The notes: generated from the sequence alone by a model not told the origin. A stretch of 64,000 bases of DNA from Sulfurimonadaceae bacterium (GCA_041572615.1 JBFFSC010000001.1:6050-70049), one strand, 5' to 3'. Numbered from the stretch's first letter, positions 26,452-61,940 are shown. Translations and numbers: made by a program.

Positions 26452-26475
26452 TAACCGACAAATTAGGACTATTAA
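26452..26475 (+). promoter_or_regulatory. copy of conserved 24-nt box (TAACCGACAAATTAGGACTATTAA) upstream of the BLUF gene
   Basis: 19/24 identical to the copy at 54573. TATACT at 26493 follows after a 17-nt spacer. 66 nt before ATG 26541. Confidence 0.4.
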
Positions 26476-26540
26476 ACCGTATAAAAAATAGATATACTAA
26501 ACAATAGAGAAATATGAACAAAGATGTATAGAGGTCTGTA

Positions 26541-26939
26541 ATGATACGGTTGATCTATGTAAGTCAGGCAAACGATATTGATTTCAACGAGACAAAAGCC
26601 ATCCTCGATGTCTCCTTCAAGCATAACAAAGACAATAGCATCACAGGGGTATTGGTCTATGGTCAGAACTATTTTATCCAGTGCCTTGAAGGTAGCAAGG
26701 AACAGGTAGAGGCCCTCTATAGAAAAATCATTTTAGACCAGCGGCATGACCATATCGAACTGATCAGTAAAGAGGAGATTCAAGACCGCTATTTTGATGA
26801 CTGGCATTTGTCTTTAATGAACAAACATGCCTATAACGATATCATACAGAGACATTCAAACAGTGGTGTTTTCAACCCTTATACGATGCGCCCTGAACAG
26901 CTTATCAAGATACTTGATGAACTCTCAAGGGTTGTTTGA
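26541..26939 (+). CDS. short BLUF-domain blue-light photoreceptor
   Basis: LIYVS (Tyr), GVLVYGQNYFIQCLEG (Gln) and DDWHLSLM (Trp/Met) match the BLUF photocycle residues. 132 aa with no output domain. Confidence 0.85.
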   Translation: MIRLIYVSQANDIDFNETKAILDVSFKHNKDNSITGVLVYGQNYFIQCLEGSKEQVEALYRKIILDQRHDHIELISKEEIQDRYFDDWHLSLMNKHAYNDIIQRHSNSGVFNPYTMRPEQLIKILDELSRVV

Positions 26940-26966
26940 TTATAAAACTCAATACAGGAGTATACA

Positions 26967-27785
26967 ATGAAAGTTGCATTAACAGGAGCCAGTGGTTTCG
27001 TAGGAACAGCTCTGCAAGAGTCCTTTAATAACTGTACTGTCATCTCACGTCATGATGATCACTCAAGCATGCTCAAAAAACTCAAAGATACCGATATTGT
27101 GATCAATCTTGCAGGGGCACCCATCATCAAACGGTGGAGTGATCCCTACAAGCAGACACTTTTAAAAAGCAGGATAGAGACAACACGCGAACTTGTCAAA
27201 GCTGTCAATCAAAGCAATGTCAAGCATTTTATATCAACCTCTGCTATTGGGGTCTATCCCGATGATCTTCCTTGTGATGAGTCCAGCACAAAGATCTCAA
27301 ATGATTTTTTAGGTGAACTCGCTTACCAGTGGGAGCAGGAAGCTCTGCTATGTGACAAACCGACAACTATCCTTCGTTTTGGCGTTGTCCTGGGAAAAGG
27401 TGGAGGCGCACTTGCCCAGATGCTGACACCTTTTCGTCTCGGGCTGGGAGGCACCATTGGAAATGGGGATATGATGACGAGCTGGATACATATCGAAGAC
27501 CTTGTTCGTATCTATCGTTTTGTTATAGACAACAAACTTACAGGTATCTTCAATGCCGTATCTCCAACTCCTGTAACTAACTATACTCTAACAAAAGCCC
27601 TTGGTAAAGCCTTGCACAGGCCAACCATCCTGCCTATCCCAAAGTTTGTCTTGAACATCATGTACGGTGAAGCGGCATCCGTCTTGACAGGCTCTAAAGA
27701 GGTCTATCCCAAAGCACTACTTGATGCTGGATTTGTCTTTTCACATCATAATATCTCTGATGCTCTCAAGGATATTTTAAAATGA
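26967..27785 (+). CDS. NAD-dependent epimerase family protein, TIGR01777/YfcH-like
   Basis: N-terminal LTGASGFVG Rossmann motif. C-terminal DUF1731-like region. 272 aa. Confidence 0.75.
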   Translation: MKVALTGASGFVGTALQESFNNCTVISRHDDHSSMLKKLKDTDIVINLAGAPIIKRWSDPYKQTLLKSRIETTRELVKAVNQSNVKHFISTSAIGVYPDDLPCDESSTKISNDFLGELAYQWEQEALLCDKPTTILRFGVVLGKGGGALAQMLTPFRLGLGGTIGNGDMMTSWIHIEDLVRIYRFVIDNKLTGIFNAVSPTPVTNYTLTKALGKALHRPTILPIPKFVLNIMYGEAASVLTGSKEVYPKALLDAGFVFSHHNISDALKDILK

Positions 27786-28735
27786 AAATTGCCGTTTCAT
27801 CCTGTCTTTTGGGAAACAGAGTCCGTTTTGACAGTGGACATAAACATGACCATTTTATCACCGATGAGCTCAGCCGATATGCCCAGTTTATCCCTTTTTG
27901 TCCTGAAGACCTTGCCTTTGGAAGTCCAAGAGCCTCAGTGAGGATGGTACACGATAAACAAAACACGATTATCATTCAGTCCAACAAAGACGGCTCAGAC
28001 CTAACGTCCACGCTTCTGCAGGCTGCACATGATGATCTTGACCGGATAAAAAACGAGCCTCTGTGCGGTATCATCTTCAAATCAAAATCACCAAGCTGCG
28101 GTCTTAAAAGTGCCAAAGCCTATCTGCCCAATGGTTTTGCGGAGGGGAAAGAAGACGGAATTTTCGCGCGTTTATGCAAGGAGCATTTCCCTCTTTTACC
28201 GATGGAGGAAGAGGGACGATTAAATGATCCCTGGCTGAGAGAGAACTTTATCATGCAACTCTTTGCCTATGATGATTTTGAACAGTTAAAACATTCCTAT
28301 AACGGCATCAAGTCATTAGTGGATTTTCACCAATCCTATAAATTCATGCTGCAGTCAAAAGATGAGATCAATTATCGAAGGCTTGGCCGGCTCATCGGCA
28401 CACATGACAAAAAGAATGCAGAGCACATCTTTAAAGAGTATGAATATCTCTTTAAAAAGACCATCTCATATAAAAGCAGCATCGGCAAGACGCGTAATGT
28501 TCTGGAACATATGGCTGGTTTTGTGAAAAACGATCTTTTGGATGTTGAAAAGCAGACACTGCATGAACAGATCAAAGACTATGCTGCAAAGATAATACCA
28601 CTTATCACCCCGCTGAGCACACTCTATATGTTTGCCCATAAATATAATGCGACATATATACTCGGTCAAAAGTTTTTACAGCCTTACCCTAAAGAGTTAG
28701 CCCTGCGCTCTCATATCAATAGTGTGAAGCCATGA
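27782..28735 (+). CDS. ybgA: YbgA-type DUF523 + DUF1722 protein
   Basis: IAVSSCLLGNRVRFDSGHK (DUF523) plus a helical C-terminal half. It sits directly upstream of, and overlaps, the photolyase gene, as in the E. coli ybgA-phr operon. Confidence 0.8.
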   Translation: MKIAVSSCLLGNRVRFDSGHKHDHFITDELSRYAQFIPFCPEDLAFGSPRASVRMVHDKQNTIIIQSNKDGSDLTSTLLQAAHDDLDRIKNEPLCGIIFKSKSPSCGLKSAKAYLPNGFAEGKEDGIFARLCKEHFPLLPMEEEGRLNDPWLRENFIMQLFAYDDFEQLKHSYNGIKSLVDFHQSYKFMLQSKDEINYRRLGRLIGTHDKKNAEHIFKEYEYLFKKTISYKSSIGKTRNVLEHMAGFVKNDLLDVEKQTLHEQIKDYAAKIIPLITPLSTLYMFAHKYNATYILGQKFLQPYPKELALRSHINSVKP

Positions 28736-30084
28736 GACGCATTCTTTGGTTTCGACGCGATCTCAGGGTTTCAGACAACCCTCTCTTGGCATTGGGTGGA
28801 GAGGTCTTGCCGATCTTTATCTTTGATAAAAACATCCTGACACCGCTTGATAGAGAGGATAGACGCATCTCATTCATCTTCTTTCATGTACTCAAACTAA
28901 AAGAAGAACTTCAGCAAAAAGGGCTTGATCTTAAACTCTTTTTTGCAGATCCGATCGAAGTCTTCACCTCCCTCGCTGCACTTGGTTTTGATGAAGTCGC
29001 AGCCAGTGGCGACTATGATACTTACGCCAGAGACAGGGACCGCAAAGTCTCTCACATCCTGCCGTTTAATTATGTGCACGACACCTATATCTTCAGACCC
29101 GACGAGATACTCAAACCAGACCATACACCCTATCTCGTCTTCACCCCTTTTTACAAGAAAGCAAAATCTCTCTTCACGAAGGCACACCTGCAAAGCCACC
29201 CTTTTGTCGAACAGACACTCTACCCAAGTGATTATGATGGTATCACTCACCTTGGAAGTGAGCAGCAAGAGACCCGCAAGATAGAGATTGCTTCCATCGG
29301 ATTCAGGTCTGTGCCCTGCCCACATGAGGATCCCCATACGCTATTAAACACTTTTGATCTGCAAAACTATGAAAAGCACAGAGATGTTCCCTACCTTCAC
29401 AGCACTTCAAAACTTAGTCTTCATCTGCGTTTCGGCACACTTTCCATCCGTGATCTCTTGCGCTTTTTAAGCACTCAAAAGAGAGCAGGTATTCCCACAG
29501 AGCCTTTTTTCAGACAACTTGTCTTCAGAGAGTTTTACGCCTATCTCCTCTACCATTTTCCGCGTGTTGAAAAAGAGAACTACAAATACAGTTTTGAAGG
29601 TATCCCCGATAAAAAAAGATATGCAGATTTTTGTGAGGCAAATACAGGTGTTCCTATTGTCGATGCCGGTGTCAATGAACTTTTACAGACCGGATATATG
29701 CATAACCGCGTTCGCATGATATGTGCTTCTTTTTTCACAAAAGACCTTCTGCTTCCATGGCAATGGGGAGAGACCTTCTTCGCAAAGCACCTTCTTGATT
29801 ATGACGCGGCATCCAACATTCTCTCATGGCAATGGAGTGCCGGTACAGGTATAGACCCGCAACCCTATTTTCGTATTTTCAACCCCTATCTTCAAAGTAA
29901 GAAGTTTGACAAAGAAGCCTGCTACATCAAAGCCTACTGTCCTATGCTTAACACAGTCGAAGCGAAACTCCTGCATGATGAAGAGGCACTGTTTGAGCAT
30001 ACTCTGCCTGGTTACCCAAAACCTATCATCAGACATAAAGAGGCTGTACAAAAAGCATTGATCCACTTTAAAAAAGGGCTTTAG
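28732..30084 (+). CDS. phrB: deoxyribodipyrimidine photolyase (class I CPD photolyase/cryptochrome family)
   Basis: WFRRDLRVSDNPLL, TGVPIVDAGVNELLQTGYMHNRVRM, WQWSAGTG, PYFRIFNP. Confidence 0.9.
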   Translation: MRRILWFRRDLRVSDNPLLALGGEVLPIFIFDKNILTPLDREDRRISFIFFHVLKLKEELQQKGLDLKLFFADPIEVFTSLAALGFDEVAASGDYDTYARDRDRKVSHILPFNYVHDTYIFRPDEILKPDHTPYLVFTPFYKKAKSLFTKAHLQSHPFVEQTLYPSDYDGITHLGSEQQETRKIEIASIGFRSVPCPHEDPHTLLNTFDLQNYEKHRDVPYLHSTSKLSLHLRFGTLSIRDLLRFLSTQKRAGIPTEPFFRQLVFREFYAYLLYHFPRVEKENYKYSFEGIPDKKRYADFCEANTGVPIVDAGVNELLQTGYMHNRVRMICASFFTKDLLLPWQWGETFFAKHLLDYDAASNILSWQWSAGTGIDPQPYFRIFNPYLQSKKFDKEACYIKAYCPMLNTVEAKLLHDEEALFEHTLPGYPKPIIRHKEAVQKALIHFKKGL

Positions 30085-30110
30085 CACCTTATCCTTGCCC
30101 TTGAGCGATT

Positions 30111-30126
30111 TCGGATATATATCCGA
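30111..30126. repeat. perfect 16-bp palindrome TCGGATATATATCCGA
   Basis: Self-complementary over all 16 nt. It lies 27 nt after the phrB stop and 106 nt before the kinase start. No U-tract follows. Confidence 0.9.
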
Positions 30127-30231
30127 TACCCTCCAACGATAGGACACCTTTATGTTTATACAAGCCAAATCGGTGTAAACTAAAACCACAATGTCATCTT
30201 ATTTTCTCCAGACACACAAGAGGTTCCGCAG

Positions 30232-32172
30232 GTGAAAGACAACACAACGATTTTAACTGATGCTATCTTTGACAATGTCGACCATCTACTTATCGCTACA
30301 GACACAGAAGGTGTCATCACCAAGTTCAATAAAGCAGCAGAAAGATTCCTGGGCTATCAGGCCGAAGAACTTGTCGGCAGTATGACCCCTGCACTCTTTC
30401 ACCTTGAATCTGAGGTTGTTGAACGGGCACAACTCTTCTCCGCCGAGCTGGAACAAAATGTAGAGCCGGGATTTAAGGTCTTTGTCATCAAGACAGAGCT
30501 TGGGCTTCCCAATGAATATGAATGGACCTATATCACCAAAAGCGGTGAGCACAAACCCGTTCTTCTTTCTGTCACTGCCTTACGTGACGATAATGGCAAC
30601 ATTACAGGTTATATCGGTGTTGCCAAAGATATCTCAGAAAGCAAACGCATTGCCCAGGACCTTCACCTGAGCCAAAACAGACTCAACGAAGCCCAGCGTA
30701 TCGCAAACATAGGGAGCTGGTCCCTTTCAGCCCGATCCGGCCTTTTATTATGGTCTGATCAGATCTACAAGATCTTCGAGATCGACCCCAAGCATTTCAA
30801 ACCCTCCTATGAAGGCTTTCTAAACAGTATTCATCCTGATGACGTCGAAAAGGTCAACCAGGCCTTTAGTGCTTCTCTTGAGAACAAAACCTCTTATAAC
30901 ATCGAACATCGCCTTCTTATGAAAGACGGTCGTATCAAATATGTCATCGAACGCGGTGAAACCGTCTATTCCGATACAGGAGAAGCTCTACTGACACAGG
31001 GGACGGTTCAAGACATCACTGAACTTAAACTGGTCCAACAGAGCCTGATCGAAGCGAAAGAGGCAGCCGAGAATGCCAACCGCTCAAAGAGCCGTTTTCT
31101 GGCCAATATGAGCCATGAGATACGTACACCCCTAAATGGTATTATGGGCTTTATCGAATTACTTCAAAAAGAGGAGACCGATCCCAAGAAAAAAGATTAT
31201 CTTGATATCATCCACACCTCCTCAAAGTCCCTGCTTGTCGTGATCAATGATATTCTTGATCTCAGCAAGATCGAAGACGGGAGTATGAAAATCGAGCCTA
31301 CCGACTTCGATCTTCATCAACACCTTGAACAGCTGATCACTTTTTTTAAGTCCATCAGCGACTCAAAAGAGATTGATCTGCATTTTGAGTATCCAGAAAA
31401 GCTCCATTCCCATGTATATACCGACTCCTTGCGTTTAAAACAGATCCTTTCCAACCTGATCTCCAACGCTATAAAGTTCTCACCTGAGAACTCGACAATC
31501 ACAATCGACCTAAAACGAGAAGATGACCACCTTATCATAGCCGTAAAAGATGAAGGAATAGGCATCTCTGAAGAAGCACAAAAACGTATCTTCAATCCCT
31601 TTGAACAAGCCGAAGTATCTACCACAAGGAACTATGGAGGAACCGGTTTAGGGCTGAGTATCTCAAAAAAGCTTATCGAGCTGCTTGACGGAGAGATCTA
31701 CCTTGAAAGTGAACTTGGCAAAGGAAGTACTTTTTCTTTTTCCATCAAGGCGCCTGAAATCTGCACCCTGGAAAAACATGAACACGATGACGCCGTACCT
31801 GCACTTCAAGGGCATATCCTCGTTGCAGAAGACAACAAGACAAATCAGCTTCTTCTTACCCTCCTATTGGATGAGATGGGTCTGACCTACAGCCTCGTTG
31901 AAGATGGAAAGGAGGCCGTAGAAGCATTCAAACAATGCCCAGACTACAATCTCATATTAATGGATATCAATATGCCCAATATGAACGGCATTGAGGCAAC
32001 AGAACATATACGTCAATCAAACTATCCGCATAGGAACATACCAATTATCGCCTTGACCGCCAATGTAATGAAGGAGGATATCGATCACTACCTTGAATCA
32101 GGTATGAACGCGCATCTTTCAAAACCTATTGACAGTCACCTTTTGGCACAGGTGCTGACACAATATCTATAA
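30232..32172 (+). CDS. hybrid sensor histidine kinase (PAS-PAS-HisKA-HATPase-REC)
   Basis: GTG start after AAGAGG. Two PAS/PAC units. H-box FLANMSHEIRTPLNGI, G-boxes DEGIGI and GGTGLGLSISK, and a C-terminal REC (ILVAEDNKTNQ, LILMDINMP). Confidence 0.9.
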   Translation: MKDNTTILTDAIFDNVDHLLIATDTEGVITKFNKAAERFLGYQAEELVGSMTPALFHLESEVVERAQLFSAELEQNVEPGFKVFVIKTELGLPNEYEWTYITKSGEHKPVLLSVTALRDDNGNITGYIGVAKDISESKRIAQDLHLSQNRLNEAQRIANIGSWSLSARSGLLLWSDQIYKIFEIDPKHFKPSYEGFLNSIHPDDVEKVNQAFSASLENKTSYNIEHRLLMKDGRIKYVIERGETVYSDTGEALLTQGTVQDITELKLVQQSLIEAKEAAENANRSKSRFLANMSHEIRTPLNGIMGFIELLQKEETDPKKKDYLDIIHTSSKSLLVVINDILDLSKIEDGSMKIEPTDFDLHQHLEQLITFFKSISDSKEIDLHFEYPEKLHSHVYTDSLRLKQILSNLISNAIKFSPENSTITIDLKREDDHLIIAVKDEGIGISEEAQKRIFNPFEQAEVSTTRNYGGTGLGLSISKKLIELLDGEIYLESELGKGSTFSFSIKAPEICTLEKHEHDDAVPALQGHILVAEDNKTNQLLLTLLLDEMGLTYSLVEDGKEAVEAFKQCPDYNLILMDINMPNMNGIEATEHIRQSNYPHRNIPIIALTANVMKEDIDHYLESGMNAHLSKPIDSHLLAQVLTQYL

Positions 32173-32185
32173 ACTTGGGACTATA

Positions 32186-34018: not shown

Positions 34019-34117
34019 TAGACAACAGGGGCACATTCTGCCCTCTTCTGCAAACAGAACAGAACAATCGGACAAACAACAAGCTCAATACATAAAATTT
34101 TACAAATATTTTCTGTA

Positions 34118-34135
34118 AAAAAAGGTGTATAATTA
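34118..34135 (+). promoter_or_regulatory. promoter-like block AAAAAAGGTGTATAATTA (-10 TATAAT at 34128-34133)
   Basis: 17/18 identical to 37405-37422. Intergenic, 156 nt upstream of ATG 34289. Confidence 0.4.
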
Positions 34136-34288
34136 GGAACTCAGATTGACGGCTTGGATATATTGGAAAAAAGCCGATGAGTCGTATTGGAGCACTGCTT
34201 GGTGTTCATGTTAATTTGGCTGTGTTTGATATCTTCTATCAAACGTTTTCTCTTGCAGATTTACTTACTATTTGTTATCGAGGACACA

Positions 34289-34537
34289 ATGAAAATTTCT
34301 GATATTACATTAGAGATGGAATTGAACGGCGTTGATGAGGCAGTGATTGCCGACATCGTAAAACTTTGTGAAAACAAAGGCTTTAACAGTGAGATTATCG
34401 ATGATGAACTTCAAAAAAGAGGTTACGAAAAACTCTTCACTGTAGATTATGATGCGTATGACGAATACGATGATTGGGAAGATGATGAGTATGCTTCTAT
34501 CGAAAAGTTCCCTCATAAAAGATCTTATATAGACTAA
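34289..34537 (+). CDS. small highly acidic hypothetical protein (82 aa)
   Basis: GAGGA lies 5 nt before ATG 34289. The C-terminal tail DYDAYDEYDDWEDDEYAS is very acidic. An in-frame TTG at 34187 would add a hydrophobic N-terminus but has no RBS. Confidence 0.45.
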   Translation: MKISDITLEMELNGVDEAVIADIVKLCENKGFNSEIIDDELQKRGYEKLFTVDYDAYDEYDDWEDDEYASIEKFPHKRSYID

Positions 34538-34545
34538 GGAAAACA

Positions 34546-34941
34546 ATGGACAACAAAGAGCTGATCCGTGCCTATTATGATATGTGGAATGAACAAAACT
34601 TTGAAAAAGCAGAGAAACTGCTTGACAAGGATATCCGATTCCGCGGTTCATTGGACATCACAGCTAACGGCATAGAAGGTTTTCTGGATTATGCCAAAAT
34701 GATCATCACAGCATTTCCGAACCTTTATCATGCGACAGAGATGACTGTCGTTGAAGGGAACATGGCTGCTGTGTATGTGACCTATACGGGTACACATGAA
34801 GGGCCCGTTTTCAATTATAAGCCAAGCGGTAATCGCATCTGTTATTCAGGGGCTTCTTTTTTTCAATTTAAAAATGGAAAGATAACCAATATTAATGTAC
34901 TTGGAGACCTAAACTCTTTACACAAACAGCTTAGCCAGTAA
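34546..34941 (+). CDS. SnoaL-like / ester cyclase (NTF2-fold) protein
   Basis: 131 aa. N-terminal LIRAYYDMWNEQNFEKAEKLL and GTHEG...P.GN, typical of ester-cyclase-type NTF2 proteins. Confidence 0.65.
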   Translation: MDNKELIRAYYDMWNEQNFEKAEKLLDKDIRFRGSLDITANGIEGFLDYAKMIITAFPNLYHATEMTVVEGNMAAVYVTYTGTHEGPVFNYKPSGNRICYSGASFFQFKNGKITNINVLGDLNSLHKQLSQ

Positions 34942-51811: not shown

Positions 51812-51840
51812 TCCAACCAACTGACATTTTTCACCTACGA
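51812..51840 (+). promoter_or_regulatory. conserved box CCAACCAACTGACATTTTTCACCTACGAA upstream of thiD
   Basis: 26/29 identical to 61863-61891. TACAAT at 51858 follows after a 17-nt spacer. The box ends 49 nt before ATG 51889. Confidence 0.55.
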
Positions 51841-51888
51841 ACCAAATGCTGTTTTTCTTACAATCGTACTATCAATCAAGGAGTCATC

Positions 51889-52671
51889 ATGAAAGTAGTG
51901 TTGAGTATTGCCGGTTCAGATTCAAGCGGAGGTGCCGGGATTCAGGCAGATCTAAAGACCTTTGAAGCCTTTGGCGTCTTTGGTACGTCAGTGATCACTG
52001 TTTTGACTGCACAGAACACAGCTGGTGTGAGTGCGATTGAGAGTGTTTCTGCCGACTTTGTACGTGCGCAGATAAAAGCCGTACTTGAAGATTTTGATGT
52101 GGCCGCGATCAAGATCGGAATGCTCTACAGCATAGATGTCATGGAGGCAGTTAAAAGCCAGATTGCCAACTGTAACTGTCCAATAGTCTTGGATCCTGTC
52201 TTTATATCCAAGGCTGGTTCACCCTTGCTTCAGGACGATGCCGTAGAAAAGATGAAAGAACTTTTTTCATATGCAACGGTGATCACACCGAACCTTTTCG
52301 AAGCAAAGGCACTTTTTGGATATGACAAAGATGATGCCGCATCTGTTGAAACGGTTAAACAACTGAATACTCCTGTACTGATTAAAAACCAGGTTATTCA
52401 AGATACGGGCCAAAAGAGAAGTGTCGACCTGCTCTATGCGGGTGATGAAGAACAATGCTTCGAAACGGCACATATCAGGACAAATAACCTTCACGGTACA
52501 GGATGCTCTTTCTCAAGTGCAATAGCTGCCAACCTTGCCTTAGGCAAAAGACTTGATGAATCGATAGAGGTCGCAAAAAGATTTGTTACCCAGTCACTCG
52601 TGCATGCACCGTCAATCGGGCACGGACCGGGACCTATCAACCACAAACAAGGAGGAAAGGATGTCGCATAA
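51889..52671 (+). CDS. thiD: hydroxymethylpyrimidine/phosphomethylpyrimidine kinase
   Basis: [26 protein letters not shown], and [12 protein letters not shown] near the C-terminus. Confidence 0.9.
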
Positions 52672-53281
52672 ACTGCAGGGACTATATGCTATTACCGATG
52701 AAACACTCACGCCTGATCACAGCGTAGTGGAGCAAGTAAAGACTGCCCTTCAAGCCGGTGCCAATATCATCCAGTACCGCAACAAGACCGCAGAAGACTC
52801 TCAGGTCGAATCTGTATGCAGGGACCTATTGAGACTCTGTCATAATCACAAGGCCATTTTTATCATCGATGACAGAGCAGATCTCGCTCATAAGATAGGG
52901 GCAGACGGTTTACACATAGGCAAAGATGACACCTCACTCTCAGATGCTAGAAAGATATTCTCTGAAGGTATCATCGGCGTATCTTGTTATGGGAGTATCC
53001 GTAAAGCTAAGGAAGCAGAAGAAGAAGGAGCCGATTATGTAGCCTTTGGTTCTTTCTTCCCCTCACCGACAAAGCCAAAATCAGGTGTTATCTCTTTAAA
53101 GGTGCTTCAGAAGGCCAAAGAAGCGTTGAATATCCCTGTATGTGCCATCGGAGGGATTAATCGTGACAATATCCATGAAGTAGCCGCATACCGGCCTGAC
53201 ATGATTAGTATTGTCAATGACATTTTCAATGGTGATATCACCCATAATATAACTCAACTCAAACAAGGAATGAAGATATGA
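52661..53281 (+). CDS. thiE: thiamine-phosphate synthase
   Basis: Start [13 protein letters not shown] follows GGAGG. IQYRNK, GADGLHIG, GGI motifs. 11-nt overlap with thiD. Confidence 0.9.
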   Translation: MSHKLQGLYAITDETLTPDHSVVEQVKTALQAGANIIQYRNKTAEDSQVESVCRDLLRLCHNHKAIFIIDDRADLAHKIGADGLHIGKDDTSLSDARKIFSEGIIGVSCYGSIRKAKEAEEEGADYVAFGSFFPSPTKPKSGVISLKVLQKAKEALNIPVCAIGGINRDNIHEVAAYRPDMISIVNDIFNGDITHNITQLKQGMKI

Positions 53282-54156
53282 AAATTAAATTAGCTATTGA
53301 ATGGTTTTTAAACCCGGATCACCTGCCATTTATCGTAGGAATACGGGAAGGTTTTTTCAAAGAGAAAGGTCTAGACCTTGAGATCATCGAACCGACAGAA
53401 CATTATGACGGTCTGGATGAGCTCTGCCAAGGCAATATACATTTTGCGACCAATGAACCCTTGCACCTGATTGAACAGTTTGATGAGAACTTTTTGACAA
53501 TGGGAACCTATTTTGAGACTAAAGGAGGTGTATTACTGAAAAAATCATCTTATGAAAAACTCATCAACGGTGACTCGATCATTGTGACTTCTCCTGTCTC
53601 AAATGAAAAGACAGACAATATCGCCTTTGAGATCATACGCCGTTTCTATGCCAAAGAAGGTGTAATGGTAAAACGTGAACAGGTCAAGTTCGTTGCAAAT
53701 GGCTTTGAACACCTTAAATATATGAAAGAAGGTGCTGATGCCGGCTGGCTTTATTTTTATAATTTCGAAGGTATAGAAGCACAACATGAAGGCATGGAAG
53801 TACTCTACCTTGATGCGGAAAACGTCGGCTTTGCAAACTTCAGTGCCCTGGACATCTTTACTAACAAAAGCTGGTATAAGGAAAACACACAAACATGCGA
53901 CCATTTTCTCGATGCAGTAAGGGAGTCGACCACATGGATGAGTAAACATCCTGATGATGCTATGCAACACTATTATGATTACACAAAAGAAGAGAAGAGC
54001 GATCTGATGGATGACATCCTCACTGCAACGATGGAATGTTTTCATTCTGATTTTAATTCACTAGCCGCAGACCAGGAACCGATACTGGAGTTTTTTACCG
54101 AGATAGGGATAACCCAACTGCCTTATAATGATTTCAAAAAGGCATTTTTGGCTTAA
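53278..54156 (+). CDS. cytoplasmic NMT1/THI5-like protein (possible HMP-P synthase or pyrimidine-binding protein)
   Basis: No signal peptide. N-terminal LNPDHLPFIVGIREGFFKEKGLDLEIIEPT resembles yeast THI5 [34 protein letters not shown]. ATGA overlap with thiE. Confidence 0.6.
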   Translation: MKIKLAIEWFLNPDHLPFIVGIREGFFKEKGLDLEIIEPTEHYDGLDELCQGNIHFATNEPLHLIEQFDENFLTMGTYFETKGGVLLKKSSYEKLINGDSIIVTSPVSNEKTDNIAFEIIRRFYAKEGVMVKREQVKFVANGFEHLKYMKEGADAGWLYFYNFEGIEAQHEGMEVLYLDAENVGFANFSALDIFTNKSWYKENTQTCDHFLDAVRESTTWMSKHPDDAMQHYYDYTKEEKSDLMDDILTATMECFHSDFNSLAADQEPILEFFTEIGITQLPYNDFKKAFLA

Positions 54157-54157
54157 T

Positions 54158-54517
54158 ATGAAAGGTTTACTTTTAGTCGCACACGGCAGCCGAAGAGATG
54201 CATCAAACAAAGAGTTTGAGACAATGGTCTCTTCTCTGAACAAAAGGCTTCATAAGGTTTATTCTAAGGTAAATACATCGTTTTTGGAGTTATCTTCACC
54301 AAGTATCGATGAAGCGCTGCATGCAATGATAGCTGAAGGTATAGACGATATACAGGTGTATCCTTTCTTTCTTAACCCCGGAAGACATGTACATCATGAT
54401 ATCCCTGAAAAGATAAAAGCATTCAAAACACTACACCCTGAAGTAAGCTTTGATATTCTGCCTCATTTTGGAAGCTCTGAACATATTATCTCCCTAATAG
54501 TAAATGATTTGACCTAA
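54158..54517 (+). CDS. small CbiX-type (sirohydrochlorin chelatase-like) protein
   Basis: MKGLLLVAHGSRRD and PFFLNPGRHVHHDIP are typical of CbiX(S). 119 aa. Confidence 0.6.
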   Translation: MKGLLLVAHGSRRDASNKEFETMVSSLNKRLHKVYSKVNTSFLELSSPSIDEALHAMIAEGIDDIQVYPFFLNPGRHVHHDIPEKIKAFKTLHPEVSFDILPHFGSSEHIISLIVNDLT

Positions 54518-54572
54518 GTACTTGTCTAAACCCGGCATCTACTCACTACATGTTTTTACGCTATAAAAGAAT

Positions 54573-54596
54573 GAACTGACAAATTATCACTACTAA
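54573..54596 (+). promoter_or_regulatory. copy of conserved 24-nt box (GAACTGACAAATTATCACTACTAA) upstream of lipocalin gene 1
   Basis: 16/24 identical to the 51817 copy and 19/24 to the 26452 copy. GATGAT at 54614 (17-nt spacer) or GATAAT at 54617. 41 nt before ATG 54637. Confidence 0.4.
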
Positions 54597-54636
54597 CATC
54601 CGGACACATATGCGATGATAATACCAAAGGATTCAT

Positions 54637-55158
54637 ATGTACCGAGTATTTGTTTTTTTACTGCTTCTTACCAGCATTACAGGATGTTCCACCCCTTATC
54701 TCCCGTTGGATACCGTCAAAAAAGTTGACCTGGAACAATACTTGGGCACATGGTATGAAATCGCCCGATATGAGCACTATTTTGAAAAAGGATGCCGTGA
54801 TGTCTCTGCGACCTATACACGTAATGAAGATGGCAGTATACGGGTCATCAATCAATGCACCAAAGAAGACGGAGAAACGACAGAAGCTGTTGGCGTAGCC
54901 TATGCAACCGACAATAGTTACAGTAAACTCAAAGTAAGTTTTTTCAGACCTTTCTATGGAAACTATTGGATTATTATGCTTGATCCGGACTATGACTATG
55001 CTGTCGTAGGTGATCCCAGTCGTCAATACCTTTGGATACTCTCACGTACACCCCAACTTGATAACGATATCAAAGAAATGATACTAAAAAGACTTCCACA
55101 GATGGGATATGCAGTAGAACCTTTGATGTGGACAAAACAAGGAATGGGAGATGTTTGA
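54637..55158 (+). CDS. blc: bacterial lipocalin (Blc-type outer-membrane lipoprotein)
   Basis: Lipobox LTSITGCS. Lipocalin motif YLGTWYEIARY. Confidence 0.85.
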   Translation: MYRVFVFLLLLTSITGCSTPYLPLDTVKKVDLEQYLGTWYEIARYEHYFEKGCRDVSATYTRNEDGSIRVINQCTKEDGETTEAVGVAYATDNSYSKLKVSFFRPFYGNYWIIMLDPDYDYAVVGDPSRQYLWILSRTPQLDNDIKEMILKRLPQMGYAVEPLMWTKQGMGDV

Positions 55159-55618
55159 AAAAACAGTTCACATGACATTCAGTACTGAGATTGGGGTCAA
55201 TGCTAAAACACTCTTTGATTTTCATGGCGATACCGACAATCTGCCAAAAATAACCCCACCATGGATAACAGCAAGGCTTGTTTCACTTAAACTCCCTCTT
55301 TATGAAGGCAGAGAACTTGAACTTGATATCAGCCGTTTTGGTTTGACACAACGATGGAAGATACAAATTGCGGAGCTTAACCCGTTTGAACTTATCTGTG
55401 ACAAAGCACTCAAAAGTCCTTTTTCATCTTTTAGTCACCACCACAGGTTTAAAATGATCGGCGAGAACAGGACTCTGCTCTGTGATGAACTCGAGTTCAG
55501 TTTACCTTTCTATCCCTTCAGCCTCATTGCCATGCCTTTTATAAAAAGAGACATCCGAATGATGTTTGAATATAGACATCTAAAAACTAAAACTTTATTG
55601 GAGAACAACAATGTTTAA
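55151..55618 (+). CDS. SRPBCC-fold (START/Bet v1-like) ligand-binding protein
   Basis: 155 aa. Size and the pattern TLFDFHGDTDNLPKITPPW resemble COG4276-type SRPBCC proteins. 8-nt overlap with blc. Confidence 0.5.
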   Translation: MFEKTVHMTFSTEIGVNAKTLFDFHGDTDNLPKITPPWITARLVSLKLPLYEGRELELDISRFGLTQRWKIQIAELNPFELICDKALKSPFSSFSHHHRFKMIGENRTLLCDELEFSLPFYPFSLIAMPFIKRDIRMMFEYRHLKTKTLLENNNV

Positions 55619-56135
55619 CACCTCACTGCACCTTGACGAGAAGTGCCATGCACAACCCCGAATTGCCGCTTTATTGACCTGTGGAAGCAATATAATGCCC
55701 CTTGCCTGGCATATGCCCGTATCCAAAGAACCATTTAGATATGCCGTCGCTATACGAAGCGAGAACCATACACATGATTTGATCAAAAAGAACAGAGAGT
55801 TTGCCCTGAATTTTTTGGATATTTCCTATCAGGATGCCTATCAGAAGTCTGGTGATATTCATGGGGGAAGTGTCGACAAGTTCGAACTCAGCGGGCTTCA
55901 TCAGAAAGATGCACTAAGTATTGAAAGCACTCTCATCGAGGAGGCTTATATGATCTATGAATGTATACTCGTTGATATCATCAGCTATGGCGATCACGAT
56001 ATATTTGTCGCTGATGTGAACCTAATCTTGAACAAAGAGACTAAAGAGGTAAAACCCACTCTGTTTTTGGGTAAAGGATATTATGATACTTTACTCGGTG
56101 ATCCTATACGACTGAAAAGGAATACTGATGAATAA
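55611..56135 (+). CDS. flavin reductase-like (FMN-binding split-barrel) protein
   Basis: [23 protein letters not shown] ... REFALNFL, typical of the flavin reductase domain. 8-nt overlap with the upstream gene. Confidence 0.7.
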
Positions 56136-57336
56136 ATACATCCCTCATGCTTTTGATTTTGATCCTGATGAACGTGGTCATTTTGGAAGGTTCGGTGGAC
56201 GTTTTGTACCGGAAACACTTATGCCTGCCCTTATTGAACTTGATGCATTTTATGCTTCCTTGCGCTTTGACCAAGATTTCTGGTCTGAAGTAAATGCCTA
56301 TTTTAAAGATTATGTCGGAAGACCTTCACCTCTATACAAAGCGCAAAGCCTATCTGATGAACTTAATGCACATATTTATCTAAAGCGTGAAGACCTTAAT
56401 CATACCGGTGCACATAAGGTGAACAATACAATCGTGCAAGGACTGCTTGCCAAAAAAATGGGCAAGACAAAGGTCATCGCTGAGACCGGAGCCGGACAAC
56501 ACGGTGTTGCTACAGCAACCATCGCTGCTTTGATGGGCCTTGAATGTGAAATCTTCATGGGAGAGAAGGATGTTGAACGGCAACAACTCAATGTCTTTCG
56601 CATGAAGCTTTTAGGCGCCAAAGTCCATGCTGTTTCATCAGGAAGCCGTACACTTAAAGATGCGATGAATGAAGCCATACGCCATTGGGTCACCAATGCA
56701 CGCGACACCTTTTACATCATCGGTACTGCAGCTGGTCCTCACCCCTACCCATTGATGGTTCGTGACTTCCAGGCCATTATCAGTTTTGAAGCAAAAGAGC
56801 AGATCCTTCAACAAGAAGGTTCCCTTCCAGACTATGTCATTGCATGTATAGGAGGAGGAAGTAATGCGCTTGGGATGTTTGCCCATTTTATCAATGAAGA
56901 ATCAACTCAATGTATTGGTATAGAAGCCGGAGGCCATGGACTTGAAAGTGGAAAGCATGGGGCCAGTCTTGCCCTTGGAAGACCAGGGATACTACATGGA
57001 CAGATGAGTTACCTTTTGCAAAGCAATGACGGCCAGATTGACGAAGCACACTCAATATCTGCAGGTCTAGACTATCCTGGAATTGGCCCTGAACATTCAT
57101 TCTTGATGGAGCAAGGAAAAGTAATTTATGATAGTATTAACGATGATGAAGCTATGGATGCATTTGTATGGTTAAGTCGTGCAGAGGGCATTGTTCCTGC
57201 TTTTGAGAGTGCCCATGCGATTGCCTATCTGAAAAAAATGCCTAGAGAGAATATTCAGAATAAAAAAATCATTATCAGCCTTTCAGGACGAGGTGACAAA
57301 GACATGATCCAAGCAATGGAGATATTGAAACTATGA
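56128..57336 (+). CDS. trpB: tryptophan synthase beta chain (TrpB1 type), with no adjacent trpA
   Basis: [45 protein letters not shown] and [10 protein letters not shown] are near-collinear with E. coli TrpB as I recall it. Confidence 0.9.
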
Positions 57337-58796
57337 AAACATCACAAAAAAAACAGACTATACTATTAACGGGAGCAACGGGATATATTGGACGTCGTCT
57401 AAAACACAAGCTGTTAGAGGATAACACTAACCGAATCAAACTACTTGTTCGACATGCCAATTCACTGAGCGATAGTGTACGTCAGCATACTGAAATCATT
57501 GAAGGCAGTACCTTTGATAAAGACTCCCTAGATAAAGCACTGCAAGGTGTCGACGTAGCCTATTATCTCATCCACTCTCTTGGGAATGATGATTATGCAG
57601 AGCTGGATAGAAAAAGTGCAATGAACTTTCGTGAAGCAGCTATAAAGGCTGGTGTCAAGAAGATTATCTACCTGGGAGGACTTGGTGTTATTGACAAAGA
57701 CACAAGTGAACATCTCCTCAGCCGCATAGAAACCGGCCAGATACTTTCTCAAAGACCTGATAAGATTGACGTCATCTGGTTTCGTGCGGGTGTCATCATC
57801 GGTTCAGGCAGTGCCAGTTTTGAGATCATTCGTAATCTCATCCAAAAACTCCCAGTCATGATCACACCTAAATGGGTACGTACAAAAGCTCAGCCCATTG
57901 GCGTTGAAGATGTTATCGATTACCTTGAAAGTGCAAAAGAAGAGACACTAAGCGGGACTCATATCGTAGACATAGGTTCAGAAAAGATGTGTTATCAAGA
58001 AATGATGGTCGAATGTGCCAAAGTCATGGGACTTAAACGTCTCATTATCCCTGTTCCATTTCTTTCTGTAGGTCTATCATCCTACTGGCTGAATATCTTC
58101 ACACCTGTGCCTTTCAATGTCGCTGCTTCCCTTATCAAAGGAGTCCGTTGTGAAGTCCTTGTTCAAAACGACAACGCCAAAAGGCTATTTCCTCATATTC
58201 ATCCCTCTTCATTCAAACAAAGTATTGCTAATGCGTTATCTGAAGCGGAAGAGAATCAGGTATTAAGCCGATGGAGTGATAGAGGTGATGGTGTTTGGGA
58301 TACCGATCATAAGTTCTCAATCGCACAAGCTATCTTTATTGATAGACAAGTGCTCCCTTTAGGTAATCTTTCTAAACATGATGTCCATCAGAGCTACATA
58401 TGTATCGGTGGTCAGAATGGATGGTTCTCCTATGACTGGTTATGGGGGATAAGAGGGTTCTTTGATAAACTTTCAGGAGGTGCTGGACTCAACCGGGGAA
58501 GACGATCGCAGCACGAGCTTCGCATTGGTGACAGTCTGGACTTTTGGAAAGTCGTTGATATACAAGATGACGAACGACTGCTTCTGTTTGCACAGATGCG
58601 TCTGCCCGGAAAGGCCTGGTTGGAGTTTAAGATACACGAGGGAAACCTTGTTCAAAGTGCCTACTTTCTGCCTAAAGGAGTATTTGGAAGACTTTACTGG
58701 TACGCACTTGTACCGCTTCATTATCTTGTTTTCAAAGATATGATCCGATCTATTATAAGACAGGCAAAAGACATAAGAGACAAAAGAATGTCTTAA
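57333..58796 (+). CDS. NAD(P)-binding (NmrA/SDR-like) + DUF2867 protein, YbjT-like
   Basis: N-terminal [13 protein letters not shown] Rossmann motif. C-terminal half of about 170 aa with the size and position of DUF2867. 487 aa. Confidence 0.7.
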
Positions 58797-58820
58797 CCTA
58801 GTCTCGTTAGCAACGAAAGC

Positions 58821-58860
58821 CAATCCACCAATCCACCAATCCACCAATCGACAAATCCAC
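58821..58860 (+). repeat. tandem octamer array: CAATCCAC x3, then CAATCGAC, AAATCCAC
   Basis: Read directly: caatccac caatccac caatccac caatcgac aaatccac. Intergenic, and it overlaps the box copy at 58845. Confidence 0.9.
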
Positions 58861-58868
58861 ACTACAAA
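58845..58868 (+). promoter_or_regulatory. copy of conserved 24-nt box (CAATCGACAAATCCACACTACAAA) upstream of the small ORF/SDR operon
   Basis: 17/24 identical to the 54573 copy. TAGACT at 58886 follows after a 17-nt spacer. 47 nt before ATG 58915. Confidence 0.35.
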
Positions 58869-58914
58869 CATCCTTTATATTACTATAGACTGTGTAAAGA
58901 GTAGGAGGATGTTT

Positions 58915-59004
58915 ATGAACCATTTTATAGAAGAACTGAATATCAAGTTAGTCCTTGTGCCTTGTGCATTTGCACTATTCTTCCTGATCCGGGTATGGAG
59001 TTAG
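58915..59004 (+). CDS. candidate 29-aa hydrophobic micro-protein (MNHFIEELNIKLVLVPCAFALFFLIRVWS)
   Basis: Not in the ORF track (too short). AGGAGG at 58903-58908 lies 6 nt before the ATG. The stop is 8 nt before the SDR start. One predicted TM helix. Confidence 0.3.
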   Translation: MNHFIEELNIKLVLVPCAFALFFLIRVWS

Positions 59005-59012
59005 TAAATTAC

Positions 59013-59765
59013 ATGAGCCAACGTATTTGGATGGTAGGCGGCAGTAGCGGTATTGGTCTTGAACTTGTCAAACTCTGGCTTATCAATGGTGAAAGGGTAA
59101 TCGTATCTTCACGTAATGCAACCGGCACTGAGATGCTTAAACTACTGGTAGATGCCTATCCTGAAAGACTAAAACTCATTGACTTGGATATCTCAGATAC
59201 CAATACGATCAGTGAGACCATCCAAGAAGTATGGTCACTGTATGAAGGGCTTGATCTTTGGTTTTACAATGCCGGGGCCTATGAGACCATGAAAATACAC
59301 GAATGGAAGTTCGAGCACTTCAAGCAGATGAATATGGTCAATTACCTTGGTGTAGTCAATCTTATGACAGAACTGGCGCCACTCTTTAAACGGCAATATC
59401 ATGGCCGCTGGATCCTTAATATCAGTCTCTCATCTTACCTCGGTCTTCCCTACGGAGGTGGATACAGTGCACCCAAGGCTGCCCTTCTTAATCTGGCCGA
59501 GTCGATTCAACCTGAACTGATACGCGACAACATACAACTTCAGGTCATCAACCACGGTTTTGTAAAAACGCGCCTGACGGCTAAAAATGATTTTGACATG
59601 CCCCAATTGATGGAACCTGAGATAGCAGCAAGAAAGATCTTTGAAGGCTTGAAAAAGCCCTATCGCTTTGAGATAAGATTTCCGTTTGGGCTTTCTTTGT
59701 TCTTGCGAATCTTACGACTGCTTCCTTACAAGGTCTCCCTGGCATTGACTGCAAAGGCCTTGTGA
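59013..59765 (+). CDS. short-chain dehydrogenase/reductase (SDR)
   Basis: Start MSQRIWMVGGSSGIGLEL (TGxxxGxG-type). NAG and the YSAPKAAL catalytic motif. The upstream ORF extension (58962) lacks an RBS. Confidence 0.8.
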   Translation: MSQRIWMVGGSSGIGLELVKLWLINGERVIVSSRNATGTEMLKLLVDAYPERLKLIDLDISDTNTISETIQEVWSLYEGLDLWFYNAGAYETMKIHEWKFEHFKQMNMVNYLGVVNLMTELAPLFKRQYHGRWILNISLSSYLGLPYGGGYSAPKAALLNLAESIQPELIRDNIQLQVINHGFVKTRLTAKNDFDMPQLMEPEIAARKIFEGLKKPYRFEIRFPFGLSLFLRILRLLPYKVSLALTAKAL

Positions 59766-60196
59766 TGAAGATTGAACAAACAGCAAGGGCCTATGCTGAT
59801 TTCTTTGAAAGTATCTCCAAAGAGACATCGATGGAGTCCTACGCCAAACTTTTCGATGTAAACGTCTGCTTTGAAGATCCTTTTCAAAAAGTCATCGGCA
59901 TAGAAAAGGTCTACCATGTCTTCGAGCATATGTTTACAACCCTCTATGACCCCCGTTTTATCGTCAATGAGATAGTGTGTGATAAACAGTGCGCTTATTT
60001 GCGCTGGACCTTCTCGTATCAGCGTAGCCCCAAACTCAATATAGAAAAGTTCACCGGTGTCAGTCGGGTACAGTTTCTTGAGACAGGCAAGGTGCTTTCA
60101 CATGTCGATTATTGGGATGCCGCCGAGAACATCTATGAAAAAGTTCCTATTCTTGGTTTTGTCTTGCGTCTGATCAAACAAAGGATCAAAGCATGA
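59762..60196 (+). CDS. NTF2-like (SnoaL-fold) protein
   Basis: 144 aa. Size and pattern (YADFFESI ... CAYLRWTFSY) fit an NTF2-like fold. 4-nt overlap with the SDR gene. Confidence 0.55.
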   Translation: MMKIEQTARAYADFFESISKETSMESYAKLFDVNVCFEDPFQKVIGIEKVYHVFEHMFTTLYDPRFIVNEIVCDKQCAYLRWTFSYQRSPKLNIEKFTGVSRVQFLETGKVLSHVDYWDAAENIYEKVPILGFVLRLIKQRIKA

Positions 60197-61434
60197 AACT
60201 GGCATCGTCAACCCTCTTTTACTACGCACTTCCTGCATTTTCACTGGCGATGCTTGGTCTTCCTCTTTACATCTATCTTCCTACATTTTACTCCGAATAT
60301 GTCGGTCTAGGTACCTTTGAGATCGGTATAGTCCTGTTTTTGGCACGTGGGCTGGACCTGATACTTGATCCCCTCGTTGGCTCGTTAAGTGACAAATATG
60401 CAAAACGTAAGTTGATGATGTTTATCGGTATGATTATCCTTCTTGCCGGTTTTTTGGCACTAAGTTACCCACTGCCGTCTTGGATATGGCTGCTTGGTTT
60501 CTCATTTATCGCCTACACCGGATGGAGCCTGATGAGTATTCCTTACCTCGCTTTGAGTGCAGAGTTAAGCCGAGACTATCATGACAACACCCGATTGGCT
60601 TCCAGTCGCGAGTTGCTAACGATATGTGGTTTAATCTTGGCCCTTGTCATTCCTTATGCCCTTGATATTGCAGACAATGCTCAAGCGACAATAGAAATGA
60701 TGTTTTTCATCGTCGGGATATCTCTGCCTGTGCTGTTTTTACTGTTTAATCATCATATAAAAGAGCCAAAACACACATTACATTCGCTTAATTTTTTTAG
60801 CGGACTTAAACAACTCTGGTTACATGCACCTGATGCAAGATCACTATTCTTAGCCTTTTTATTTAACAGTCTTGCCAATGCTCTACCTGCAACACTTTTT
60901 CTTTTCTTTGTCTCTCTCATTTTACAAACGCCTGATCAGACCGGTCTTTTTTTGCTCTTGTACTTTATCTCGGGCTTGATCGCGCTGCCACTATGGAGTT
61001 CGTTTGCAAAAAGATGGGGTAAAAAGAGAGTATGGGTTGCCTCCATGACTCTGGCATCTGTTGCCTTTAGTTTTGTCCTTTTATTAGGCCCTGGAGATGA
61101 ACTGTATTTTATGTTCATTACGCTCGTATCGGGGTTTAGTCTTGGTGCCGACATGGCTCTTCCGGCAGGGATACAAGCCGATATAGCCCAAAAAATAGAA
61201 ACGAACGGGAAACGACTTACCGGAGTATTGTTTGGATTTTGGGCCATGTTGACAAAACTCTCACTCGCTTTGGCTGTGGGCATATCTTTTGGACTATTGG
61301 GATTAAGCGGGTTTGAACCTGAATCACCAAGTTCGAGTTCTCTTATCATGCTTTCCATACTCTATGGTATGGCCCCGGTCATCTTTAAAATACTGGCTAT
61401 CTACTTTATATCCAGGTATGACGATGCGATATAG
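60193..61434 (+). CDS. MFS transporter, glycoside-pentoside-hexuronide (GPH) type
   Basis: 12 TM helices. ARGLDLILDPLVGSLSDKYAKRK matches the GPH loop signature (R..D...DP..G). Confidence 0.75.
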   Translation: MKLASSTLFYYALPAFSLAMLGLPLYIYLPTFYSEYVGLGTFEIGIVLFLARGLDLILDPLVGSLSDKYAKRKLMMFIGMIILLAGFLALSYPLPSWIWLLGFSFIAYTGWSLMSIPYLALSAELSRDYHDNTRLASSRELLTICGLILALVIPYALDIADNAQATIEMMFFIVGISLPVLFLLFNHHIKEPKHTLHSLNFFSGLKQLWLHAPDARSLFLAFLFNSLANALPATLFLFFVSLILQTPDQTGLFLLLYFISGLIALPLWSSFAKRWGKKRVWVASMTLASVAFSFVLLLGPGDELYFMFITLVSGFSLGADMALPAGIQADIAQKIETNGKRLTGVLFGFWAMLTKLSLALAVGISFGLLGLSGFEPESPSSSSLIMLSILYGMAPVIFKILAIYFISRYDDAI

Positions 61435-61861
61435 TCCAGTCATTTGGTTCTTGTGTCTGTTTGTCGTATTGATTGGGCTTGAAAACATTTACCCATTGCC
61501 TTTTGCGCTCTCTTTTTCAAAGATTTATGGATTATTATGTCTGTTTTTTGCCTTGATCATCGTCATATGGACCAAATACCTTTACATGCGTCACAACACC
61601 TCTTATGACCCAAATAAAAAACCTGTTGTATTGATAACAGACAGTATCTATGCGATCAGTCGCAATCCAATATACATCGCACTTGTACTGGCTTTCTTTG
61701 GAGTTTCACTTATACTCTCTTTAAGCTATTCGCTTCCGGGGACACTATCTCTGTATCTTATTCTTTCACGGCATATCATCCCTCATGAAGAAAAAGAACT
61801 TGAAATGATTTTCAAAGACCGCTATCTTGAGTATAAATCCTCTACTCCAAAATGGGTTTAA
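61418..61861 (+). CDS. ICMT/PEMT-like membrane methyltransferase family protein
   Basis: Four to five TM helices. YAISRNPIYIALVLAFFG (RNP.Y motif). Start ATG 61418 or 61424, overlapping the MFS gene end. Confidence 0.6.
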   Translation: MTMRYSPVIWFLCLFVVLIGLENIYPLPFALSFSKIYGLLCLFFALIIVIWTKYLYMRHNTSYDPNKKPVVLITDSIYAISRNPIYIALVLAFFGVSLILSLSYSLPGTLSLYLILSRHIIPHEEKELEMIFKDRYLEYKSSTPKWV

Positions 61862-61862
61862 A

Positions 61863-61891
61863 CCAATCAACTGACATATTTGACCTACGAA
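61863..61891 (+). promoter_or_regulatory. conserved box CCAATCAACTGACATATTTGACCTACGAA upstream of lipocalin gene 2
   Basis: 26/29 identical to 51812-51840. TATACT at 61909 follows after a 17-nt spacer. The box ends 50 nt before ATG 61941. Confidence 0.55.
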
Positions 61892-61940
61892 TGTTCTTTG
61901 GCTTGTCTTATACTTAAACTATATGAGTTAGGAGTACACC

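Follow-up and report, generated by a model that had tools for sequence, protein, structure and literature searches.

We analysed a 64,000-nt stretch of the genome of a Sulfurimonadaceae bacterium (GCA_041572615.1, JBFFSC010000001.1:6050-70049), hereafter the window, in which five plus-strand operons are each preceded by one copy of a 24-nt box. These operons encode, among others, a BLUF protein and a photolyase, thiamine enzymes, lipocalins and an FAD amine oxidase resembling UfaD, and relatives of the latter protein place the window in the Campylobacterota, nearest to Sulfurovum (76-82% identity). The boxes had been noticed in a first-pass annotation made from the sequence alone, which regarded them as a regulatory element whose cognate factor was unknown. 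Our follow-up indicates that they are almost certainly copies of a real promoter element found throughout the phylum, which serves a photoprotection regulon, and points to a candidate for the protein that binds them, a LytTR-family response regulator encoded within the regulon in related genomes.

Direct inspection of the window bears out the presence of all five boxes on the plus strand, and their intergenic location, at the positions first given for them, save for the second copy, the sequence of which had been read correctly while its start is 51818 rather than 51817, so that its -10 hexamer, TACAAT, lies at 51859. The distance from the end of the box to the start codon is 40-65 nt, and three of the five boxes occupy short gaps (80-120 nt) that separate successive plus-strand operons. 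When up to one mismatch is allowed, the original degenerate pattern finds exactly five sites in the 64 kb, namely the known boxes. Shuffled versions of the window yield a mean of 0.24 matches, with five or more in 0 of 100 shuffles, a test that is partly circular because the pattern was built from the same five sites. The boxes match no known RNA, since an Rfam scan of the window returned no family.

The element was then sought in 65 other Campylobacterota loci (1.06 Mb in total) and 15 loci of other phyla (206 kb), each relative being represented by a stretch of about 21 kb. The original pattern has 27 exact matches in the 65 Campylobacterota loci. A position weight matrix (PWM) gave 136 matches of at least 14 bits in the same DNA, compared with 3-7 in mononucleotide shuffles, and none in the 206 kb from outside the phylum. 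The matches come from Sulfurovum, Sulfurimonas, Sulfuricurvum, Sulfurospirillum and Arcobacter-group loci, and nearly all are found 20-65 nt upstream of the first gene of homologous operons, in the same orientation, whereas genes internal to these operons (ufaD, DUF1365, cfa, MFS, SnoaL, histidine kinase and response regulator) have essentially no box matches. The idea that the box is a regulon-specific cis element holds up well. A strict pattern that includes the -10 hexamer, run over metagenome contigs, yielded 122 matches, about 70 of which precede these same gene families. The remainder stand before no open reading frame (ORF), or before unrelated phage, capsule or Bacteroidota-like genes, which is what chance matches in AT-rich DNA would be expected to do.

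A refined consensus was derived from 122 non-redundant sites: A(-1) T(0) n A A Y T R A C A W5 N3 C T A Y n A A A A. Conservation thus extends beyond the 24 nt first described, with an AT two bases upstream and a run of A residues downstream. The core positions ACA (7-9) and CTA (18-20) are near-invariant, while positions 15-17 and position 22 are unconserved. When the PWM is compared with itself, self-similarity is about 1.7 at offsets of 13, 17 and 21 nt, 0.57 at 10 nt and 0.44 at 11 nt, and there is no detectable inverted repeat or dyad symmetry. A TAYnAA unit repeats at 21 nt, an offset that scores no better than those of 13 and 17 nt.

The first reading had placed a -10-like hexamer after a 17-nt spacer in every copy, and TAnnnT is indeed found at exactly that distance in four of the five window copies. 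In promoter 3 a better hexamer, GATAAT, lies 3 nt downstream of the canonical place (54617-54622). The same spacing is seen in 104 of the 122 non-redundant sites (85%, against a background of 3.9%), where positions 42-47 read T85 A89 w A83 a T93, a TAnAAT-like sequence of the sigma70 type. The -35 position, on the other hand, reads TAYnAA rather than TTGACA, so that there is no sigma70-type -35 element, and no TG extension appears in the 122-site consensus either. This is how a promoter that depends on a factor is laid out, with the 3' part of the box in the -35 position, no TTGACA and a -10 at a fixed place, as had been surmised. If transcription starts about 7 nt past the hexamer, the box would span about -55 to -28, with its centre near -41.5. 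A generic sigma70 promoter and terminator scan misses these promoters, performing at chance level, except for an alternative register at lipocalin 1. We propose that the boxes mark promoters lacking a -35 that are read by the housekeeping, sigma70-type RNA polymerase. The 28-bp consensus together with the fixed -10 is specific enough to be used for annotating the regulon in genomes and metagenomes.

The positions of the boxes, -10 elements and operons are collected in Table 1. By PWM score, box 3 is the best of the window copies and box 1 the weakest, having TC in place of the upstream AT.

Table 1. Boxes (in their extended form, positions -1 to 26), -10 elements and operons of the window
Feature	Position	Strand	Content or context	Score or source
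Box 1	26450..26477	+	before BLUF/SDR-DUF1731/DUF523-DUF1722/photolyase operon	22.8 bits
-10 of promoter 1, TATACT	26493..26498	+	17 nt past box; predicted start near 26505	
Operon A	26541..30084	+	BLUF 26541-26939, SDR/DUF1731 26967-27785, DUF523+DUF1722 27782-28735, photolyase 28732-30084	Pfam
Box 2	51816..51843	+	before thiD-thiE-THI5/NMT1-CbiX	28.7 bits
-10 of promoter 2, TACAAT	51859..51864	+		
Operon B	51889..54517	+	thiD, thiE, NMT1/THI5-like, CbiX	Pfam
Box 3	54571..54598	+	before lipocalin 1	32.3 bits
-10 region of promoter 3	54614..54622	+	GATGAT at canonical spacing (54614-54619)	
Operon C	54637..58796	+	lipocalin, SRPBCC, flavin reductase, PLP-dependent enzyme, NmrA-DUF2867	Pfam
Box 4	58843..58870	+	before micro-ORF/SDR-SnoaL-MFS-PEMT operon	27.6 bits
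-10 of promoter 4, TAGACT	58886..58891	+		
Operon D	58916..61861	+	29-aa micro-ORF 58916-59005, SDR, SnoaL-like, MFS_2, PEMT-like	
Box 5	61866..61893	+	before lipocalin 2 and furan-fatty-acid genes	30.8 bits
-10 of promoter 5, TATACT	61909..61914	+		
Operon E (cut by window end)	61941..64000	+	lipocalin, UfaD-like FAD amine oxidase 62456-63691, DUF1365/UfaO-like from about 63646	

In relatives, operon E continues with a cfa/UfaM-like gene and DUF3833. UfaD, UfaO (DUF1365) and UfaM synthesise furan fatty acids, and this pathway forms the core of the singlet-oxygen regulon governed by sigmaE-ChrR (PMC7380195, PMC6852236). The FAD amine-oxidase-like and DUF1365 proteins of operon E, together with the cfa-like gene of its relatives, correspond to these three proteins, and it is because this pathway is central to the sigmaE-ChrR response that we speak of a photoprotection regulon. 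With a cut-off of 14 bits, a box precedes 46 of 70 lipocalin-ufaD operons, and SDR operons have one in about 24 loci. The box also stands before BLUF in L002, L003, L004 and L065, before DUF523-photolyase in L016, L024, L039, L084 and L085, and before the families of operon B in L014, L019 and about 15 metagenome contigs. In relatives the leading genes include, in addition to lipocalin(-ufaD-ufaO-cfa-DUF3833), SDR-SnoaL-MFS, BLUF, DUF523-photolyase, a pyridoxal-phosphate (PLP) enzyme and thiD/thiE/THI5, a ferrochelatase, a SOUL-like protein, two FAD oxidoreductases, a cryptochrome-related DPRP, an EAL protein and a phasin-like protein. Taken together, the gene set looks like a light or photo-oxidative-stress (singlet-oxygen) regulon.

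Several features of the individual operons deserve mention. THI5-like genes rank among the commonest box-headed genes in metagenomes, and the Rfam scan of the window detected no thiamine pyrophosphate riboswitch in the thiD leader, operon B sitting behind the photoprotection box instead. The thiamine genes, taken with those for the PLP enzyme and PNP oxidase, suggest that the response includes replacement of vitamins B1 and B6. Tandem copies of an 8-nt unit (CCAATCCA x 5.1, window 58820-58860) overlap the 5' half of box 4, the CAATCGACA of which looks like a diverged final unit of that repeat. A change in repeat number could modulate promoter 4, or else the repeat could simply be the origin of box 4. 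Between promoter 4 and the SDR gene lies a hydrophobic micro-ORF of 29 aa (MNHFIEELNIKLVLVPCAFALFFLIRVWS), while in relatives the SDR begins about 40 nt past the box without one. The SDR itself probably starts at ATG 58995, giving 256 aa as in relatives, and not at TTG 58962 (ORF 58962-59765). A sixth, weak box-like site (57314-57341, 10.9 bits) was rejected, because the start codon of NmrA-DUF2867 overlaps with it and the -10 is not in register. The NmrA-DUF2867 gene has a strong box of its own (26-27 bits) in L006 and L008. The site at 57314 may be what is left of a box that decayed once the gene had become fused into operon C, or it may match by chance.

The genes flanking operon A were also considered. 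After a 148-nt gap without a box, the photolyase operon is followed by a PAS-PAS-HisKA-HATPase-REC hybrid kinase and an MscS-type channel (30232-34018). The kinase (PAS-PAS-HK-REC, 30232-32172) was dismissed as a LOV photoreceptor or regulator, having no LOV signature, no DNA-binding domain and no box. Divergent from the BLUF operon, on the minus strand, are genes for an EAL-HDOD protein and a DUF808 membrane protein (24152-26371). Box-headed EAL proteins are common in Arcobacter-type loci, a hint that the light response may be linked to cyclic di-GMP. The window further holds a complete fatty-acid beta-oxidation cluster on the minus strand (9513-19231; acyl-CoA ligase, thiolase, FadB-like protein, acyl-CoA dehydrogenase and an acyltransferase/hydrolase fusion), which has no box.

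The window itself offers no candidate for the protein that reads the box, and neither Pfam on 58 ORFs nor tblastn with candidate regulators found a DNA-binding regulator in it, the Pfam scan covering all long non-overlapping ORFs and those below 90 aa falling outside it. This bears out the first-pass annotation, which had seen no such regulator encoded there, but in relatives there is a specific candidate. Clustering of all ORFs of the loci, followed by Pfam on the conserved unknowns, revealed a single module among the conserved ORFs that carries a recognised DNA-binding domain, the LytTR domain of a response regulator, and this is the only such regulator in the regulon. The module consists of three overlapping genes, encoding a CrtD/CrtISO/CrtI-like flavoprotein (473 aa, far under the NCBIfam cut-offs and without transmembrane segments), a LytS-type histidine kinase (335 aa, four transmembrane segments, PF06580) and a REC+LytTR regulator (231-237 aa, PF00072 and PF04397).

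In 14 of 14 genome loci with a visible upstream region the module lies inside a box-headed operon, with box scores from 11.8 to 30 bits, and 11 metagenome contigs show the same association. The arrangement is box-hemH-flavoprotein-kinase-regulator in the Sulfurovum lineage (L004, L020, L060, L063, L081, which is Sulfurovum sp. TSL1, and L082), box-flavoprotein-kinase in L008, and box-DUF523-photolyase-flavoprotein-kinase-regulator in Poseidonibacter and Halarcobacter (L016, L018, L024, L029, L039, L084, which is H. ebronensis, and L085). Where the furan-fatty-acid locus of a genome has no module, the module is found at another place, also behind a box. Halarcobacter ebronensis, for example, has boxes at its furan-fatty-acid locus (L030), and in an H. 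ebronensis genome (CP053836, L084) the module stands behind a box elsewhere on the chromosome. In one uncultured Campylobacterales metagenome-assembled genome (L058, 10001-19739) regulon and module form a single 11-gene operon (ufaD, ufaO, cfa, DUF3833, SDR, MFS, lipocalin, GPx, flavoprotein, kinase and LytTR regulator) behind a degenerate box that lies at the right distance from a TATAAT. This arrangement of the regulon may be ancestral or minimal. The family to which the regulator belongs is small, comprising about 20 clusters at 50% identity (E below 1e-40). Its named members are all Campylobacterota, and its distribution matches that of the box. On these grounds we lean, on balance, towards the LytTR regulator as the protein that binds the box and activates transcription.

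Several other explanations of the box have to be weighed against this one, two of them suggested by the form of the 24-mer itself. One is that it represents the promoter of an extracytoplasmic-function (ECF) sigma factor, with AAC as the -35 and C(G/T/A)AA as the -10, making it the functional equivalent of sigmaE-ChrR, and the AAC-N16-CnAA spacing does resemble some ECF promoters. The content of the regulon, too, resembles the sigmaE-ChrR core regulon (PMC6852236). However, position 22, which falls within the supposed AAC-N16-CGAA promoter, is among the unconserved ones, the near-invariant ACA and CTA are left unexplained, and so is the separate TAnAAT that follows at a fixed distance in most sites. 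Moreover, no ECF sigma was found in the window, and in the Campylobacterota loci examined phmmer searches with E. coli RpoE and with CueR detected neither an ECF sigma nor a MerR-like protein, RpoD being the only sigma factor on the Pfam-annotated contigs L081-L085. We therefore regard an ECF promoter as very improbable. A site of the OmpR/PhoB type, with 7-nt direct repeats at 10-11-nt periodicity replacing the -35, seems by a shade less probable still. The position resembles that of a pho box and a 7-4-7 arrangement can be read into the two best window copies, yet across the 122 sites only the CTAY of the second "7-mer" is conserved and positions 15-17 not at all, self-similarity at 10-11 nt is low when compared with that at 13, 17 and 21 nt, and there is no conserved OmpR-family regulator in or beside the regulon.

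More weight attaches to readings that accept the box as an operator and differ in what binds it or to what effect. LytTR sites typically comprise two repeats of 9-11 nt with a spacer of 10-13 nt, just upstream of or overlapping the -35, and are often autoregulated (PMC4847170, PMC6193735, PMC11347149). In its length and position the box agrees with such sites. Its distal half also contains, on the bottom strand (TCAGTTnAT), the CAGTT that forms the core of the AgrA site ACAGTTAAG (PMC11039898), weak evidence with a chance expectation of about 5%. Fitting the box to a 9+12+9 repeat model, on the other hand, would put its best-conserved positions, ACA 7-9 and CT 18-19, in the "spacer", and the three direct-repeat offsets are indistinguishable in score. 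This counts against our assignment, as does the fact that the regulator is not encoded in the window, and that Aliarcobacter and Sulfurospirillum have boxes while presence of the module there is not established. The link is also one of association, which leaves room for an unlinked regulator, relatives having been inspected only in the stretches described above. The LytTR system might then be merely a member of a regulon controlled by another protein, either a regulator encoded elsewhere or DUF2805/TIGR03643, a reading that we consider unlikely, albeit the strongest of the alternatives. DUF2805 is a helical, very basic domain of 70 aa that is frequent in the regulon (box-headed operons in L006, L008, L023, L030, L036, L041, L129, L201 and others), is extremely conserved, has a basic tail (WRKRVQGRKTKH...RFQGPW), and is predicted to form four helices with a possible helix-turn-helix. 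Nevertheless, it shows no significant match to DNA-binding proteins, whether by phmmer against the PDB (E-value 0.5 or worse) or by Foldseek against the PDB (best E-value 2.9, with an AF2 model whose pLDDT is only 70). The LytTR regulator, by contrast, has an established DNA-binding domain and an operon that is box-headed wherever this can be checked, so DUF2805 stays a minority candidate.

Somewhat less likely again is that the LytTR regulator acts on the box as a repressor, which keeps the -35 region occluded in darkness or in the absence of stress until the signal releases it. Promoters of Campylobacter and Helicobacter need little besides a good -10, and the box does overlap the -35 position. 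A precedent is the LytTR protein CoxC, which represses through an operator overlapping the -35 (PMC11347149). On the other hand, the invariant spacing from box to -10 is typical of activators that contact the polymerase and would be unneeded for occlusion, there is neither a TG extension nor a -35 to make these promoters strong unaided, and LytTR response regulators are mostly activators (PMC4847170, PMC11347149). It is because of the invariant spacing and the missing -35 and TG elements that we favour activation by polymerase contact over repression.

The data show that the regulon exists and is conserved, what genes it holds, where and in which orientation its boxes lie, and that the LytTR module is co-regulated with it. 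With the LytTR regulator as the preferred binder, the following scheme can be drawn, in which the binder, the sign of regulation and the nature of the signal are what we infer. Each box would be the operator of a dedicated transcription factor, most likely the REC-LytTR regulator of the three-gene module, which in the organism studied here is expected by synteny a few kb past the 3' end of the window. A light-dependent or oxidative membrane signal, possibly received via the flavoprotein, would activate the kinase. The phosphorylated regulator would then bind the bipartite box, and from this class-II-like position it would recruit RNA polymerase to the fixed -10. The genes induced would include those for photolyase, BLUF, furan-fatty-acid synthesis, lipocalins, ferrochelatase/SOUL and thiamine/B6 enzymes, as well as the regulator's own operon, resulting in positive feedback. 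The full version of this scheme is more tentative, and we give it somewhat less than an even chance: that flavoprotein, four-segment LytS-type kinase and LytTR regulator are a previously undescribed light or singlet-oxygen sensor that directly activates at least a dozen -35-less promoters through the box, with the flavoprotein as photochemical or lipid-oxidation input, and that this sensor replaces sigmaE-ChrR and LitR/CarH in the Campylobacterota.

A literature search found no described regulator of photolyase or furan-fatty-acid genes in Campylobacterota, and nothing relevant that ties LytTR or Campylobacterota to light, photolyase or singlet oxygen. If our reading is true, this would be the first light or photo-oxidative-stress regulon, together with its cis code, to be defined in a phylum of largely dark, sulfidic or host-associated habitats. 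It would also explain what an orphan LytTR two-component system and a CrtI-like flavoprotein do, and place families of unknown role (DUF2805, DUF3833, DUF2867, DUF1722, SOUL-like proteins and lipocalins) in a physiological context. A transcription-factor operator with its regulon is a known category and not a new one. What would be new is the function of the module and the regulatory replacement of sigmaE-ChrR/LitR.

Among known systems, the box may be compared with LytTR operators (AgrA P2/P3, ComE, PlnC/D, BtsR/YpdB, HdrR/BrsR, RcoM/CoxC). As there, a bipartite site of about 30 bp (the conserved span here being about 29 bp) lies at or over the -35 of an otherwise weak promoter, the partner kinase is of the LytS/His_kinase (PF06580) type, and the box precedes the regulator's own operon, as expected for autoregulation. 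Unlike in those operators, the two halves of the box are not clear repeats of each other, ACA 7-9 having no counterpart in the proximal half, and the box overlaps the -35, whereas known sites end 4-11 bp upstream of it. The module also differs in including a translationally coupled CrtI-like flavoprotein, and its output is photoprotection instead of quorum sensing, autolysis or carbon sensing. The pho box of PhoB and class II CRP/FNR sites share with the box the fixed distance to the -10, the missing -35 hexamer and the predicted centre near -41.5, but they belong to other protein families, and the box has neither a 10-11-bp repeat periodicity nor dyad symmetry.

With respect to targets, a close parallel is sigmaE-ChrR (ECF11) of alpha- and gammaproteobacteria, which overlaps strongly with the present regulon (ufaD/ufaO/ufaM-type genes, photolyase, SDRs and lipocalin-type genes) and whose regulator is likewise autoregulated. 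The control differs, in that the Campylobacterota loci examined here have no ECF or ChrR gene, the -10 is of the housekeeping type and the cis motif is unrelated. LitR/CarH regulators (MerR family, B12-dependent or class II) also govern light-protective sets, including photolyase, cfa/ufaM-like and folE/cryptochrome-type genes, from an operator that overlaps the promoter -35 region. Genes for MerR-like or B12-binding proteins are missing from all the Campylobacterota loci, and the box differs in having no inverted repeat or 11-bp tandem repeats; CarH-type tandem repeats were checked by hand and rejected, as the conserved positions do not fit them. Outside the phylum, MerR-like proteins of about 300 aa, possibly LitR-like, are encoded beside the ufaD-type cluster in three gammaproteobacterial loci (L074 4472-5380, L075 1135-2130 and L078 6325-7239), and an ECF sigma is found beside it in a Spirochaetaceae locus (L068 2926-3948). 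These neighbours would fit a lineage-specific rewiring of the same gene set, in which protective genes that are run elsewhere by an ECF sigma factor (sigmaE-ChrR) or a MerR-type photoreceptor (LitR/CarH) have, in the Campylobacterota, come under a different control system.

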